NCBI GenBank assembly: GCA_951406725.2 | Contig: OX597814.1 | Location: forward strand, 202,988,001-203,052,000 | Source of the DNA: Octopus vulgaris | Taxonomy: Eukaryota | DNA length: 64,000 nucleotides | Direction of reading: 5' to 3' | In this document: positions 3,566 to 59,795 of the stretch, piece by piece | How the letters are laid out: each line of letters opens with the position of its first letter | How positions within the stretch are numbered: position 1 is the stretch's first letter | Notes under the pieces: model-generated | Database searches by the model: none | Told to the model about the DNA's origin: nothing | The model's input: the letters and a program-made list of their open reading frames with translations, nothing else | Position numbers and translations under genes: made by a program

Positions 3566-3990
3566 AATCATCAGCATCATCATTTAACGTCCATTTTCCA
3601 TGTTGGCATGGGTTGGATGGTTTGATTGAGGTCTGGCAAGCCAGGGGGCTGAACCAGGCTCCAATCTGATCTGGCAAAGTTTCTACAGCTGGATGCCCTT
3701 CCTAATGCCAGCCACTCCGAGAATGTAGTGAGTGCTTTTTACTTGCCACCTGCACAGGAGCCAGTCAGGTGGGCCTGGCATCTATTATGTTTGGATAGTG
3801 CTTTTTACGTGCCACCAGCATGGGAGCCAGTCAGGGGGTACTGACATCAACCACATTCGGAGAGTGCTTTTTATGTGCCACCAGCACAGGGGCCATTCAG
3901 GCTGTCCTGGCATCAATCACATTCAGATAGTGCTTTTTACATGCCACCGGCATGAGAGCCAGTCAGACGGATCTGGCATCAACCAGAAAG
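3566..3990 (-). mobile_element. RTE LINE 3' UTR/tail with ~60-bp internal tandem repeats
   Basis: (CAT)n-TTAACGTCC...CTGGATGCCCTTCCTAATGCC followed by 4 copies of gtgctttttacgtgccaccagca. Confidence 0.8.
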
Positions 3991-4820
3991 ATATATGGAA
4001 GCTTTTGTGTAAAATTAGAGTAAGACATCTAAATCAAATGTAATATGGTTTGAATCCCCAAAATATCAAATTGCATGTTCTTTGTTAAAAAGTAATTCTG
4101 AAAATGGTATCATGGCTACTAAACTCTGGCTATAAAATATATAAGATTTTGTATAATTTATTTAACATTTATATACTGTAGAAAGCTACAACACTGCAGT
4201 ATTCTTCTTGAGAAAGCATTTTGTATAGACATATAGTATTAAAAGAAACAGAAGTACATATGTAGCAGATGAAAAGTATCCAGCAGCAGTAGTGGAATTG
4301 CTAAAGCCAGATTTCTGCATATTTGTGTCTCATCAGTAGAAGACATCCACTAGCAACAGCATGCTTAGACAACTTTAGCTACTATTGATGGAGAAAGTCA
4401 CTGGTGTCACAATTAGCCAGTAGGTTTGAAAAAAATTTGTTATTAACAAGGGAAGCAGCAACAGTTCTTCACCCTTTTTGTTTTTTACTATTGCTGCCTC
4501 CCTTTTTTTACTAACACTTTTTCAGTGCCTCCCTGCTGTTGGTTCAACAAAATTAAATACACCACAAATGCACCACATGTACATATTCAGCTATATATGC
4601 ACACACAAGTTTCAGTCATTTGACTGTGGCTATGCTGGAGTACCACCTTTAGTCGAACAAATCGACGCCAGGACTTATTCTTTGTAAACCTAGTACTTAT
4701 TCTATCAGTCCCTTTTGCCAAACCAAGTAACAGGGACATAAACACACCAGCATCAATTGTCAAGTGATGGTGTGGAGACAAACACAGACACACAAATACA
4801 TACATACATATATATATATA

Positions 4821-15784: not shown

Positions 15785-16200
15785 CTTGTCATTCATTCAT
15801 TGTTCGACCATGATTGAGACAATGGAATTTACTATGTTACGCCAGACTTCACGGTCCATCATAGCATTGCAGTGGTCCCGTTGCTGGATGCCTGTATCCC
15901 TGGAGATTACATCAGGGTAGGAGAGTGTGCGCCCTCTGGTATCGCGAGCAGATGGCTTCCAGAGGAGAAGAGTAGAAATTACCTCGTTTTCAGCTCTACA
16001 ACTATGTCCAGCAAACTGGACTCTTCCTCCTTTCACAAGAGACGATACAGGTGGTAATTTCCCATATATTTGTACTTTGGTTGTATGACGCTTCCATGAG
16101 AGATTTTGAGCTCTCATAAGGAGACAAGTGTAAGTTCCATCCAACCATAGACTGTAGAGTATTACAGTCAACAACATTCAACATTATTCTCACCTGTTCA
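15785..16200 (-). mobile_element. RTE-clade LINE 3' fragment (RT C-terminus)
   Basis: ORF 15797-16177 contains VQFAGHSCRAENEVISTLLLWKP...GRTLSYPDVISRDTG...AMMDREVWR, typical of RTE ORF C-termini. Confidence 0.8.
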
Positions 16201-30949: not shown

Positions 30950-31865
30950 CATCCCACTGTGTGGCAACTTGAGCAAGTGTCTTCTACTATAGCCTTGGGT
31001 CAACCAAAGCCTTGTGAGTGGATTTAGTAGACAGAAACTGAAAGAAGCCCATCAGATATAAATATTATATATATATATATATGTATGTATGTATATATTT
31101 ATATAGTATTTATATTATTATATGACCGAACGCCACACATCCTTTTCCAAGTAAATTTTATATATATATAGTGGCATTTAAAAAGCACCATTTGAGCATG
31201 GTCGATGCCAGTCCCACCGGACTGGCTTCCATGCCAGTGGCACATAAAAAGCACCATACAAATGTGGTCGTTGCCAGTGCCATCTGACTGGGTCCTGTCC
31301 TAGTCGCATATAAAAAACACTATTTGAGAGTGGTCGTTGCCAGTACTGCCTGATTGGCTTCTGTGCCAGTGGCATCTAAAAAGCACCATTCGAGCGTTGT
31401 CAATGCTAATACCATCTGACTGGCCCCTGTGCCAATGGCATGTAAAAAGCACCCACTACACTCACGGAGTGGTTGGTGTTAGGAAGGGCATCCAGTTGTA
31501 GAAACCTTGCCAGATCAGATTGGAGCCTGGTGCAGCCTCCCGGATTGCTAGTTCTCAGTCAAACCAGCAAACACATGCCAGCATGGAAAGTGGACGTTAA
31601 TTGAGGATGATGACAACAATGATGATGATAATGATGATGATGAATATTTGTGTGTTTGTTTTGTGTTTGTCTCCCCACCATCGCTTGACAACTGATGTTG
31701 GTGCTTTATGTCTCTGTAACTTAGCGGTTCAGCAAAAAGAGAACAATAGAATAAGTACTAGGCTTACAAAGAATAAGTCTTGGGGTCAATTTCTTCGACT
31801 AAAACTCCTTAAGGTGGTGCTCCAACTTGGCCACAGTCAAATGACTGGAACAAATGAAAGAATTT
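30950..31865 (+). mobile_element. Family A SINE with a nested RTE 3' UTR (31170-31643, five ~60-bp repeats)
   Basis: SINE 5' part 30950-31055; RTE repeats gtggcac..aaaaagcacca; (GAT)n; SINE 3' part 31645-31865. Confidence 0.8.
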
Positions 31866-37901: not shown

Positions 37902-38620
37902 TAACTCCTTTGTTACCATACTTCTATTGGAATACACTGCCTTTATAAGGCGGCGAGCTGGCAAAAACATTAGCATGCCGGGCGTAATGCTTAGCAGTAT
38001 TTCATATGTCTTTATGTTCTGAGTTCAAATTCCTCTGAGGTCAACTTTTCCTTTCATCCTTCAGGGTCAATAAATTCAGTACCAGTTGTATACTGAGGTT
38101 GATCTAATCAACTGGCCCCTCCCCAAAAAATTTTGGGTCTTGTACCTAGAAAAGAAAAGAATATATTGCCTTTATTTCAATTTCTGAAATATTTATGAAT
38201 TTAGTAAAATAATTTGTCATTCCTTCACACAGCTTGCATTTTCTTGGATAAGTTTGAGGCTGTGGTAAATAGGAAACTGCTTCATGAAATAAGGGTGAAA
38301 CAACAGAGATCTTTTGGTCATGTGATGAGGAAAGAGGGCCTAGAGTATTTAGCAATGACCAGAAAGATTGAAGGAAGAAAAAGCAGAGGAAGGAGAAGGA
38401 TGATATTGGTGTCAAGCTTGGAAGAAGGAGGCATTAAACATCAGGAAGTGGATCTGTTACAGAAAACAAAGAACAGACAATTGTGGCAGAACATGGTTAC
38501 TTATATCCTACTTTCTGGACATAGAGCTAAGAAGAAGAAGAATTTATCATTATTACACGTATATTTGGAACATGAATTAACATGGAATTTTAATAGGTTA
38601 TAATTTAAAAATCACATTAA
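37902..38620. mobile_element. Nested cluster: piggyBac-like MITE containing a Nin SINE (~37948-38160) and an RTE 3' fragment (~38225-38542)
   Basis: ttaactcctttgttaccat start; duplicated tgcctttat around the SINE; RTE peptide FGHVMRKEGLEYLAMTRKIEGRKSRGRRR with an (AAG)n tail. Confidence 0.7.
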
Positions 38621-49304: not shown

Positions 49305-49364
49305 ATTGTGTGTGTGTGTGTGTGTGTGTGTAGACTTAGATGGTTAGATAGATAGATGGATGGA

Positions 49365-49399
<35 letters not shown>

Positions 49400-49660
49400 G
49401 TGTATATATATAATATATAATATATATATGTATATGTGTATATATATAATATATAATATATATATATATGTATATGTGTATATATATATATGTGTGTGTA
49501 TATATATAATATATAATATATATATATATGTGTGTGTATATATATAATATATATATATATGTGTGTATATATATATAATATATATATATATATATACATA
49601 CATATGTATGTGTATATATATAATATATATATATATGTGTATATATATATAATATATATA

Positions 49661-49723
<63 letters not shown>

Positions 49724-49760
49724 GTGTATGTTTATATATATATAATATATATATGTGTAT
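49305..49760. repeat. Compound (TA)n/(TG)n microsatellite
   Basis: Direct inspection. Confidence 0.95.
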
Positions 49761-50260
49761 ATCATCATCATCATCATCATCATCGTTTAACGTCTGTTTT
49801 CCGCGCTAGCACGGGTTGGACGGTTTCGACCGGGGTCTGGGGAGCTAGGGACTGCCCCAGGCTCCAGTCTAGTCTGGCAGTGTTTCTACAGCTGGATGCC
49901 CTTCCTAACGCCAACCACTCCGCGAGTGTAGTGGGTGTTTTTTACGTGCCACCTGCACAGGTGCCAGAGGGGTCTGGCATCGGCCACGTTCGGATGGTGC
50001 TTTTTTATTATGTGGGGGGGGCAGAAATATAGGGGAGCACCAGTGGGGAGGGGTGGTTCAGAGGAATGATGACAGGTTCTTAGGCAAGTAGAACGTAGGA
50101 TAGAGGGTAATGCATGGTGAAAATAGCGTATTGAGGAGGGGGCATTCGAAGAGTAGACACCTATAATGGTGGTGGGAGAAACAACATCCGGTATAGATGG
50201 AGCAAAAATATAGAGATATCCGGTATTGGTGGTGGGGGTGGGCAGGGTGGGTGCACCGCG

Positions 50261-50590
50261 AATACGCGCGAAGGTTGAAAAAGGATGATAGAGCGAGACT
50301 TGGTCGGGCAAGAGTTAATAGAGGAGAAATTAGATACAATAGTTAGATAGATAAATAACAACAGATAGGAAAACATGTATGATTGGTCGAGAAGTGAAGT
50401 GAAGTGAAAATAAATAAAAATAAGATAAGCATTCAAACTTAGCTGTGCTCGAGATTATAGCCGCTAGGTGAATGAATGAGAGAGCAGATGTTGTTGCCTT
50501 AAGTAAAGAAATTGACCGGAAAGGAATTTTTGGACAAGGCGGAAGTGTATTAAGGGAACAGGCTTTAAAGATGGCGGAGATTGATAGACA
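50261..50590. promoter_or_regulatory. Promoter-like motif cluster within each monomer
   Basis: CGCGCGAA (E2F-like, 50265), TGATTGGTC (NF-Y CCAAT, ~50380), (GAAGT)3 = TCACTTC Inr on the minus strand (50391-50407), CCGGAA (~50516), GGCGGAAGTG (ETS, 50538), AAGATGGCGG (YY1, 50568). Confidence 0.55.
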
Positions 50591-53500
50591 AATACGCGCG
50601 AAGGTTGAAAAAGGATGATAGAGCGAGACTTGGTCGGGCAAGAGTTAATAGAGGAGAAATTAGATACAATAGTTAGATAGATAAATAACAACAGATAGGA
50701 AAACATGTATGATTGGTCGAGAAGTGAAGTGAAGTGAAAATAAATAAAAATAAGATAAGCATTCAAACTTAGCTGTGCTCGAGATTATAGCCGCTAGGTG
50801 AATGAATGAGAGAGCAGATGTTGTTGCCTTAAGTAAAGAAATTGACCGGAAAGGAATTTTTGGACAAGGCGGAAGTGTATTAAGGGAACAGGCTTTAAAG
50901 ATGGCGGAGATTGATAGACAAATACGCGCGAAGGTTGAAAAAGGATGATAGAGCGAGACTTGGTCGGGCAAGAGTTAATAGAGGAGAAATTAGATACAAT
51001 AGTTAGATAGATAAATAACAACAGATAGGAAAACATGTATGATTGGTCGAGAAGTGAAGTGAAGTGAAAATAAATAAAAATAAGATAAGCATTCAAACTT
51101 AGCTGTGCTCGAGATTATAGCCGCTAGGTGAATGAATGAGAGAGCAGATGTTGTTGCCTTAAGTAAAGAAATTGACCGGAAAGGAATTTTTGGACAAGGC
51201 GGAAGTGTATTAAGGGAACAGGCTTTAAAGATGGCGGAGATTGATAGACAAATACGCGCGAAGGTTGAAAAAGGATGATAGAGCGAGACTTGGTCGGGCA
51301 AGAGTTAATAGAGGAGAAATTAGATACAATAGTTAGATAGATAAATAACAACAGATAGGAAAACATGTATGATTGGTCGAGAAGTGAAGTGAAGTGAAAA
51401 TAAATAAAAATAAGATAAGCATTCAAACTTAGCTGTGCTCGAGATTATAGCCGCTAGGTGAATGAATGAGAGAGCAGATGTTGTTGCCTTAAGTAAAGAA
51501 ATTGACCGGAAAGGAATTTTTGGACAAGGCGGAAGTGTATTAAGGGAACAGGCTTTAAAGATGGCGGAGATTGATAGACAAATACGCGCGAAGGTTGAAA
51601 AAGGATGATAGAGCGAGACTTGGTCGGGCAAGAGTTAATAGAGGAGAAATTAGATACAATAGTTAGATAGATAAATAACAACAGATAGGAAAACATGTAT
51701 GATTGGTCGAGAAGTGAAGTGAAGTGAAAATAAATAAAAATAAGATAAGCATTCAAACTTAGCTGTGCTCGAGATTATAGCCGCTAGGTGAATGAATGAG
51801 AGAGCAGATGTTGTTGCCTTAAGTAAAGAAATTGACCGGAAAGGAATTTTTGGACAAGGCGGAAGTGTATTAAGGGAACAGGCTTTAAAGATGGCGGAGA
51901 TTGATAGACAAATACGCGCGAAGGTTGAAAAAGGATGATAGAGCGAGACTTGGTCGGGCAAGAGTTAATAGAGGAGAAATTAGATACAATAGTTAGATAG
52001 ATAAATAACAACAGATAGGAAAACATGTATGATTGGTCGAGAAGTGAAGTGAAGTGAAAATAAATAAAAATAAGATAAGCATTCAAACTTAGCTGTGCTC
52101 GAGATTATAGCCGCTAGGTGAATGAATGAGAGAGCAGATGTTGTTGCCTTAAGTAAAGAAATTGACCGGAAAGGAATTTTTGGACAAGGCGGAAGTGTAT
52201 TAAGGGAACAGGCTTTAAAGATGGCGGAGATTGATAGACAAATACGCGCGAAGGTTGAAAAAGGATGATAGAGCGAGACTTGGTCGGGCAAGAGTTAATA
52301 GAGGAGAAATTAGATACAATAGTTAGATAGATAAATAACAACAGATAGGAAAACATGTATGATTGGTCGAGAAGTGAAGTGAAGTGAAAATAAATAAAAA
52401 TAAGATAAGCATTCAAACTTAGCTGTGCTCGAGATTATAGCCGCTAGGTGAATGAATGAGAGAGCAGATGTTGTTGCCTTAAGTAAAGAAATTGACCGGA
52501 AAGGAATTTTTGGACAAGGCGGAAGTGTATTAAGGGAACAGGCTTTAAAGATGGCGGAGATTGATAGACAAATACGCGCGAAGGTTGAAAAAGGATGATA
52601 GAGCGAGACTTGGTCGGGCAAGAGTTAATAGAGGAGAAATTAGATACAATAGTTAGATAGATAAATAACAACAGATAGGAAAACATGTATGATTGGTCGA
52701 GAAGTGAAGTGAAGTGAAAATAAATAAAAATAAGATAAGCATTCAAACTTAGCTGTGCTCGAGATTATAGCCGCTAGGTGAATGAATGAGAGAGCAGATG
52801 TTGTTGCCTTAAGTAAAGAAATTGACCGGAAAGGAATTTTTGGACAAGGCGGAAGTGTATTAAGGGAACAGGCTTTAAAGATGGCGGAGATTGATAGACA
52901 AATACGCGCGAAGGTTGAAAAAGGATGATAGAGCGAGACTTGGTCGGGCAAGAGTTAATAGAGGAGAAATTAGATACAATAGTTAGATAGATAAATAACA
53001 ACAGATAGGAAAACATGTATGATTGGTCGAGAAGTGAAGTGAAGTGAAAATAAATAAAAATAAGATAAGCATTCAAACTTAGCTGTGCTCGAGATTATAG
53101 CCGCTAGGTGAATGAATGAGAGAGCAGATGTTGTTGCCTTAAGTAAAGAAATTGACCGGAAAGGAATTTTTGGACAAGGCGGAAGTGTATTAAGGGAACA
53201 GGCTTTAAAGATGGCGGAGATTGATAGACAAATACGCGCGAAGGTTGAAAAAGGATGATAGAGCGAGACTTGGTCGGGCAAGAGTTAATAGAGGAGAAAT
53301 TAGATACAATAGTTAGATAGATAAATAACAACAGATAGGAAAACATGTATGATTGGTCGAGAAGTGAAGTGAAGTGAAAATAAATAAAAATAAGATAAGC
53401 ATTCAAACTTAGCTGTGCTCGAGATTATAGCCGCTAGGTGAATGAATGAGAGAGCAGATGTTGTTGCCTTAAGTAAAGAAATTGACCGGAAAGGAATTTT

Positions 53501-54033
53501 TGGACAAGTCGGAAGTGTATTAAGGGAACAGGCTTTAAAGATGGCGGAGATTGATAGACAAATACGCGCGAAGGTTGAAAAAGGATGATAGAGCGAGACT
53601 TGGTCGGGCAAGAGTTAATAGAGGAGAAATTAGATACAATAGTTAGATAGATAAATAACAACAGATAGGAAAACATGTATGATTGGTCGAGAAGTGAAGT
53701 GAAGTGAAAATAAATAAAAATAAGATAAGCATTCAAACTTAGCTGTGCTCGAGATTATAGCCGCTAGGTGAATGAATGAGAGAGCAGATGTTGTTGCCTT
53801 AAGTAAAGAAATTGACCGGAAAGGAATTTTTGGACAAGGCGGAAGTGTATTAAGGGAACAGGCTTTAAAGATGGCGGAGATTGATAGACAAATACGCGCG
53901 AAGGTTGAAAAAGGATGATAGAGCGAGACTTGGTCGGGCAAGAGTTAATAGAGGAGAAATTAGATACAATAGTTAGATAGATAAATAACAACAGATAGGA
54001 AAACATGTATGATTGGTCGAGAAGTGAAGTGAA
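50261..54033. repeat. 330-bp tandem array, 11 full copies plus 143 bp, nearly invariant
   Basis: aatacgcgcgaagg recurs every 330 bp from 50261; the only variant seen is G>T at 53509 (also visible in the ORF track as LPP>LPT). Confidence 0.98.
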
Positions 54034-56328
<2,295 letters not shown>

Positions 56329-56367
56329 GTATGTATGTATGTGTGTATGTGTATGTATGTATGTGTG

Positions 56368-56413
<46 letters not shown>

Positions 56414-56537
56414 CCAGGATAGTTATTTTGAAAGACACATAGTAATGAGAGCAATCAAACTTACCAACCCATATACAAAGGTTTATAACTAGCTTTGTTT
56501 AACTATGTCTATGCAGCAGTGAATGAGATCGATTAAT

Positions 56538-59411: not shown

Positions 59412-59795
59412 TTGTGCCTGTGGCACGTAAGAGAACCATCCGAACGTGGATGTTGCCAGCGCCGCCCCGACTGGCCTCCGCGCCGGTGACACGTAAAAAG
59501 CACCATCCGATTGTGGCCATTGCCAGCCTCGTCTGGCACCTGTGCGGGTGGCATGCAAAAAGCACCATCCATCCGTGGCCGTTTGCCAGCTCCGTCTGGC
59601 ACCTGTGCGGGTGGCACGTAAAAAGCACCCACTACACTCTCGGAGTGGTTGGCATTAGGAAGGGCATCCAGCTGTAGAAACGCTGCCAGATCAGACTGGG
59701 CCTGGCGCAGCCTTCTGGCTTCCCAGACCCCAGTTGAACCGTCCAACCCATGCTAGCATGGAAAACGGACGTTAAACGATGATGATGATGATGAT
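59412..59795 (+). mobile_element. Young RTE 3' UTR/tail with four ~60-bp repeats
   Basis: gtggcacgtaaaaagcacc repeats, GGAAGGGCATCCAGCTG, GGACGTTAAAC(GAT)n. Confidence 0.85.

Follow-up and report, generated by a model that had tools for sequence, protein, structure and literature searches.

A 64,000-nucleotide (nt) stretch of the Octopus vulgaris genome (GenBank assembly GCA_951406725.2, contig OX597814.1, forward-strand positions 202,988,001–203,052,000; hereafter the window) carries on its minus strand, from 54033 to 49761, a young retroelement in which a tandem array of 330-bp units precedes the tail of a long interspersed element (LINE), with no open reading frame (ORF) between them. We find that this element is a bipartite, non-autonomous member of a clan of RTE-like LINEs and that its array is the normal 5′ end of that clan. 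From sequence we infer, and consider rather probable, that the units form an internal RNA polymerase II (Pol II) promoter, which is eroded and then renewed by re-amplification of units, and that intact relatives supply the endonuclease and reverse transcriptase (RT) for mobilization.

Organization of the window element

Read along the minus strand, the element comprises 11 full 330-bp units and a partial one of 143 bp, followed by a C-rich linker, a GC-balanced segment of ~235 bp and a (GAT)8 tail (49761–49784). The array (50261–54033; 11.4 copies at a 330-bp period, 99% identity) has a sole substitution among its units, at position 53509, just as described in an earlier note made from the letters of the window. 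That note had also recognized a ~250-bp linker followed by an RTE-type 3′ untranslated region (UTR) and (GAT)n, without an ORF, and this description stands: the linker measures ~241–270 bp, the tail is a LINE 3′UTR (see below), and the frames of monomer and linker, represented by four window ORFs, all lack matches in Pfam, so that a coding origin was rejected. The terminal partial unit (monomer positions 1–143; 50261–50403) is joined to the linker, and the junction region recurs across the family. The element is flanked on its 5′ side by a (TA)n/(CA)n microsatellite (54034–55589), the insertion target, and on its 3′ side by (TA)n-rich sequence (49364–49760). A candidate target-site duplication at this locus is indistinguishable from chance within (TA)n.

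The motifs that had been assigned to each monomer are present in every unit or in all but one; the YY1- and ETS-like sequences had been quoted from the plus strand. On that strand of the array, AAGATGGCGG, GGCGGAAGTG and CCGGAA occur 11, 10 and 11 times, respectively, and the YY1-like site on the sense strand of the element is therefore CCGCCATCTT (monomer positions 157–166; 50568–50577), repeated every 330 bp. This site contains the core GCCATCTT, of which the element has 11 copies and which is identical in sequence to the mouse TF core. The minus strand holds GACCAATCA and TTCGCGCG, 12 times each. Each unit further contains an ETS-like pair (CACTTCCGCC at monomer position 187 and TTCCGG at 213; 50516–50547) and a CACAGCTAAG block (50438–50447), the counterpart of which in sister monomers is (C/G)CAGCAAG. 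Factor names such as YY1 and ETS follow general usage or the mouse papers, and the sites so named are likenesses of sequence. The 3′UTR had also been called CpG-intact, which is close to the truth: the observed/expected (o/e) CpG ratio is 0.76 (0.36 for the whole window), and there is one private CpG-type change.

A dispersed ORF-less family

A monomer search of the same genome returned 115 candidates, 40 of which were scored, giving 39 loci. A linker-specific 27-mer and a monomer 22-mer anchor occur 52 and 178 times in the genome, respectively, with 0 occurrences of the controls for each. We retrieved 58 loci besides the window, and in 57 of them the linker runs straight into the tail, the remaining one (L104) being interrupted by an assembly gap. 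The possibility that monomers reside in satellite blocks unlinked to this tail had been raised in the earlier note; 175 of the 178 anchors lie within the 59 loci examined, window included, at 0–20 per locus. The note had also predicted dispersed copies differing in monomer number, with the monomers in every case 5′ of the linker or of an RTE ORF. The first arrangement is found at 51 of the 52 other monomer-bearing loci (the exception, L104, enters an N gap), whereas the second, a 330-bp monomer before an ORF, was found at none of the retrieved loci, with three of the 178 anchors unplaced and L104 gapped. Nor does an ORF lie 3′ of the array at any of the other 57 loci that have both linker and tail.

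The family bears marks of retrotransposition, namely variable (GAT)n, 5′ truncation and, at L037, a 42-bp target duplication. The 3′ flanks open with ATAT, ATGT or ATAC in 34 of 55 scorable cases, and the arrays have no common unique sequence upstream, apart from neighbouring tail copies. The earlier proposal of a recently active, non-autonomous RTE-like derivative is supported. The monomer–monomer joint is present in contigs of three of four public runs, from two organisms. An assembly artefact, a concern also voiced in the note, is thus not the source of the tandem organization as such; the count of 11.4 at the window is that of the assembly.

Several further observations concern individual copies. 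In run X2, the kind of which is unconfirmed, a circularly joined contig spans a complete variant monomer that has, unlike the window, a substitution at 50424. Close to monomer position 93, 8 bp are duplicated in some units, scattered along the array, of L040; L038 and L042 have the same duplication, each in its terminal partial unit. Elsewhere in the window the tail has 12 matches of at least 120 bp, including those at 3730–3985, 31169–31453 and 59464–59629. Metagenome relatives (79 loci) are almost all fragments without a 5′ end.

The autonomous parent clan and the origin of the linker

The path to the autonomous parent leads through L061, beside which linker-like sequence enters an endonuclease fragment; a search with it identifies LINEs of ~4 kb. 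The single ORF of these elements matches RVT_1 (E = 6.6e-30), with weaker PHD and endonuclease matches below the Pfam cut-offs, and database relatives, mostly of 900–1,100 amino acids (aa), have the same domain make-up. A stop-free frame of at least 1,000 aa is present in 39 of 61 scored genomic copies of the clan. These LINEs thus have one ORF with an apurinic/apyrimidinic endonuclease (APE) and an RT, no ORF1, and short 3′ (GAT)n repeats in place of poly(A), the last being a feature of the RTE clade (PMC5850137). No RTE-named sequence is found among the 120 homologues listed for the parent protein, and the label RTE-like is based on structure and general knowledge of the clade, not on a tree. 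An L1 would have ORF1 and ORF2 with poly(A), whereas here there is a single ORF with a (GAT)n tail; the element may work like an L1, yet is not one.

Two observations on clan members may be added. At L061 (8490–9350, minus strand), a tether of ~25-bp repeats and an autonomous-LINE endonuclease fragment are joined directly to a 330-type array, a chimera suggestive of template switching from one family member to another, or else of nested insertion. L153–L192 form a large, recently active subfamily of APE–RT–PHD LINEs with many stop-free frames of ~1,100 aa; their arrays are each 97–99% uniform, with a unit length that is locus-specific (333–500 bp) and composite periods to 811 bp.

The tail of the window element (49785–50019; a C-run, one ~61-bp unit and a terminal ~190 bp) is a 3′UTR of this clan. 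It is 96–97% identical to the sequence following the stop codon in L077, L078, L079, L081 and L084, five frameshifted copies, and 87–90% identical to that of intact copies. The C-rich 5′ part of the linker, its first ~200 bp (50064–50260), is 77–80% identical to the 5′UTR of L077, L080 and L084, and its last ~45 bp (50020–50063) are 93–95% identical to the parental 3′UTR. At the position where the linker switches from one to the other, L077 has a 40-bp direct repeat, 90% alike, in both UTRs. Aligned in this way, the linker reads as a chimera of 5′UTR and 3′UTR fused at the repeat, rather than as a plain tether. Since its two halves match the two UTRs with no ORF between them, the element is a bipartite non-autonomous LINE, with a 5′UTR-like part, a 3′UTR and tail, and dispersed copies marked by retrotransposition. 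Internal deletion arose repeatedly in the clan. Further bipartite derivatives are L082, L083, L085–L093 and L124–L140, which fall into several kinds that differ from one another in monomer type and in the junction left by the deletion. The 61–67-bp unit of the clan 3′UTR itself forms variable tandem arrays, with ~12 copies in L070, and also does so in L103.

Monomer arrays throughout the clan

The mouse-L1-like architecture proposed for the window element is supported and extends to the autonomous parents, the order array–tether–(ORF)–3′UTR–(GAT)n being common to autonomous and non-autonomous members. Tandem Repeats Finder (TRF) detects arrays of at least two units, abutting or near the tether, in 13 of 40 near-intact copies, with periods of 339–811 bp. 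In L163 and L174 the arrays have at least 12.6 units and extend past the retrieved stretch (L153 had too little 5′ flank, and the array of L173 was measured on a neighbouring copy). The monomers of frameshifted autonomous copies and of other bipartite derivatives are 238–473 bp long, some with nested sub-arrays of 90 or 133 bp.

Sister monomers are 47–52% identical to the window monomer, with a CpG o/e of 1.1–1.6 (window, 0.36), and in alignment they share with it CGCCAT, a pair of CTTCC/TTCCGG sites and a CAGC(T)AAG block. Of 19 clan monomers counted, 18 retain CGCCAT (12 of 13, plus six of six from the intact subfamily), and the ETS-like pair is found in 12 of 13 monomers, from several lineages. 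A pattern for the cassette, written after the alignment had been seen, fits 11 of the 13 monomers and, for each, 0 of 300 shuffles. The NF-Y-like GACCAATCA is restricted to the window lineage in the monomer alignment.

Growth and turnover of the arrays

A CpG-type variant at monomer position 152 (50582) is present in all 11 window units and in none of 130 units elsewhere. Four of the 14 loci with at least three units (the window, L043, L047 and L048) have a private variant in every full unit, which indicates that such arrays descend from one unit; the terminal partial unit of L048 lacks the private variant of that locus. Variants are recurring or block-wise in L032, L040 and L155, so multi-unit duplications occur too. 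A four-unit block (89 + 339 + 337 + 340 bp) is exactly repeated in the L155 array near oriented position 4510.

Arrays have a median length of 1,588 bp in young copies (n = 24) versus 418 bp in old copies (n = 33; p = 3e-5), and the shortness of old arrays fits either expansion at insertion or later contraction. Consistent with expansion in place, no donor with the two private variants of the window copy came to light. At the 14 loci with at least three units, hypervariable unit stretches left out, seven private substitutions fall in array sequence (28.8 kb) and five in body sequence (8.0 kb; p = 0.10), a comparison that fails to separate the possible timings of expansion.

Positions of 5′ ends

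The first bases of the array, directly after (TA)n, are TTCACTTCACTTC, and the earlier note had interpreted this edge as an initiator at which 5′ ends should cluster, at TCACTT. The array does begin there, but the clustering is not borne out: among 48 family 5′ ends that lie inside the array and upstream of the terminal partial unit, two are at TTCACTT, with 1.7 expected (p = 0.52). TTCACTT as an initiator was accordingly rejected, 5′ ends occurring there at chance level.

Another part of the monomer shows a weak clustering of 5′ ends. Twelve of the 48 fall within a single 20-bp interval at monomer 260–275 (p = 0.002 versus uniform), and 13 lie no more than 35 nt from the block (p = 0.001). 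Five of 17 earlier sister loci have their end in that zone too, but it was these that prompted the idea. The positions are suggestive of a transcription start near monomer 260–282 (50452–50475), a zone containing TCATTC, which we take to be initiator-like.

Proposed mechanism and alternative explanations

In the mechanism that we propose, the enzymes of intact relatives would have copied the window element into a (TA)n microsatellite. Each unit would supply YY1-like sites, with ETS-like sites in addition in the window lineage, and upstream units would drive starts within downstream units, most likely near monomer 260–282. Part of the array would be lost at each retrotransposition, a loss that may be offset when a single unit, or a few adjacent ones, are re-amplified upon insertion or shortly thereafter, through template switching, second-strand mispairing or unequal exchange. 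A more far-reaching version, which we regard as possible but doubtful, is that an invertebrate clan of RTE-like LINEs independently evolved a self-renewing promoter of the mouse L1 type and that RT rebuilds an array of 4–20 units from one unit during insertion.

Five points weigh against the proposed promoter mechanism: (i) the promoter role of the monomers is read from sequence; (ii) the shuffle control for the cassette (0/300) is biased, the pattern having been drawn from the same alignment, and TTCCGG is missing from all six intact-subfamily monomers, which retain two to three copies of CGCCAT and the block; (iii) a null model of microhomology to (TA)n weakens the 20-bp peak of 5′ ends to p = 0.01–0.17, the cluster near the block was defined on the same family, and held-out ends fall in the matching zone in two of 20 cases from one lineage and six of 25 from intact copies (pooled p = 0.08); (iv) the intact copies found, as potential enzyme sources, are only 87–90% identical to the tail, its 96–97% relatives being frameshifted and (v) short duplications occur throughout the clan UTRs (32–63 bp in the tether, 61–67 bp in the 3′UTR and, ahead of the ORF, 149 bp), so selection is not needed for tandem arrays to form in the clan.

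The main alternative, conceivable though in our judgement unlikely, is that the array is indeed the 5′ end of the element but a neutral by-product of a duplication-prone RT or of replication slippage, with transcription starting in the tether or reading through from the host. Such an origin would account for tandem duplications of many sizes all along the UTRs, for the quick turnover of the monomers (238–500 bp, ~50% identity), for 5′ ends that are mainly scattered and often at TA/AT microhomology, and for an ETS pair that is not in all lineages. It is harder to reconcile with the presence, in each examined lineage, of a monomer at the same place with a CGCCATT/CGCG-type junction, a YY1-like core and an excess of CpG despite ~50% divergence, or with the lack of a common unique sequence upstream of the arrays.

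We consider it highly improbable that the units derive from circular or rolling-circle RNA, as in retrozymes, and became fused to an RTE tail. The near-perfect arrays within a locus and the locus-wide private variants fit this origin, and the unit size is within the range of animal retrozymes. However, Rfam yields no ribozyme match at E up to 10, neither strand has a hammerhead core, and folding of the sense strand (−29.4) is like that of shuffled sequences (−29.6 ± 3.6); a retrozyme or ribozyme identity was rejected on these results. The arrays are also invariably polarized 5′ of the tether, and L032, L040 and L155 have mixed and higher-order unit orders. Finally, an independent satellite captured before a short interspersed element (SINE)-like tail, or an assembly artefact, is scarcely credible and largely refuted already, for although the locus lies within long microsatellites and its count of 11.4 comes from the assembly alone, the same linker and tail follow at 51 of 52 other monomer-bearing loci, autonomous LINEs begin with homologous monomers and the monomer–monomer joints recur in three of four independent runs.

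Other features of the window

Beyond the 5′ microsatellite lies a C-terminal RT fragment (55678–56422, minus strand) that has no relation to the element and is presumably from a CR1/L2-like LINE. Two different decayed C-terminal LINE remnants, at 15797–16177 (minus strand) and 38208–38603 (plus strand), we take to be from two other RTE-like LINEs.

Comparison with known systems

Bipartite RTEs, namely WALLSI3, MAR4_MD and RTESINE2, were described by Kojima 2018 (PMC5786205) and are expected to be transcribed by Pol II. Like them, the octopus element retains just the two ends of an RTE-like LINE, 5′ and 3′, as the product of an internal deletion, and has no ORF. It is unlike them in having a multi-kilobase tandem 5′ array (the word 'tandem' is absent from the main text of that paper) and in the location of its deletion at a 40-bp repeat common to both UTRs.

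RTE-2_OV, a brain-expressed octopus RTE (Petrosino 2022, PMC9115989), resembles the parent clan in its single ORF of ~1,100 aa with endonuclease, RT and a zinc-binding module and in its 5′UTR of ~600 nt. Identity with RTE-2_OV was rejected, as the four published primers match none of 57 clan loci at up to three mismatches. The words 'tandem' and 'monomer' are absent from the main text of the RTE-2_OV paper, as are 'monomer' and 'promoter' from the available text of a paper that annotates octopus repeats (PMC13282606). Among the paper titles and abstracts searched, none describes arrays of monomers in cephalopod or RTE-like LINEs, a scope outside which lie Repbase, Dfam, repeat-library supplements and subscription journals, where an earlier annotation is possible. 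The window element is of an ordinary kind, the bipartite non-autonomous LINE; unusual and apparently undescribed is the feature common to its clan, a 5′ array of monomers like that of mouse L1, with regrowth from single units.

In mouse and rat L1, monomers are followed by a tether of ~250 bp, and the 5′UTRs of several mammalian L1s have tandem motifs (PMC5381506). Outside the octopus clan, it is chiefly from mouse L1 that a 5′ array of this design is known. The octopus clan is like mouse L1Md (A, Gf and Tf) and rat L1 in its variable tandem monomers, followed by a non-monomeric tether of similar length. It is further like L1Md in that (i) each monomer of the window element contains, as a sequence match, the YY1 core GCCATCTT of the mouse monomer (PMC6454616; bioRxiv 10.1101/2022.08.06.500894); (ii) the units are CpG-rich; (iii) younger copies have more monomers, as in mouse, where monomer number declines with subfamily age (PMC9022269) and (iv) 5′ ends fall within the outermost unit. 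Unlike mouse L1, the octopus LINEs are single-ORF APE–RT–PHD elements with no ORF1 and a (GAT)n tail, their units are AT-rich (37–41% GC) and 240–500 bp long, their 5′ ends show no clustering at the YY1 core, and the window copy has no ORF. We assume that the likeness to mouse monomers reflects convergence.

The recovery of monomers by mouse L1 is treated as unresolved in the literature, where unequal crossing over has been proposed, as have second-strand mispairing and template switching (PMC6454616; bioRxiv 10.1101/2022.08.06.500894). The octopus clan offers a second, apparently independent case of monomer regain, in which very young copies, fixed locus-private variants and traceable source units are available. 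If RT rebuilds the arrays at insertion, then hundreds of near-clonal arrays would record the unexplained regeneration step of mouse L1. Should the units act as promoters, neighbouring genes could be influenced by blocks, scattered through the genome, of as many as 20 YY1/ETS-like cassettes.

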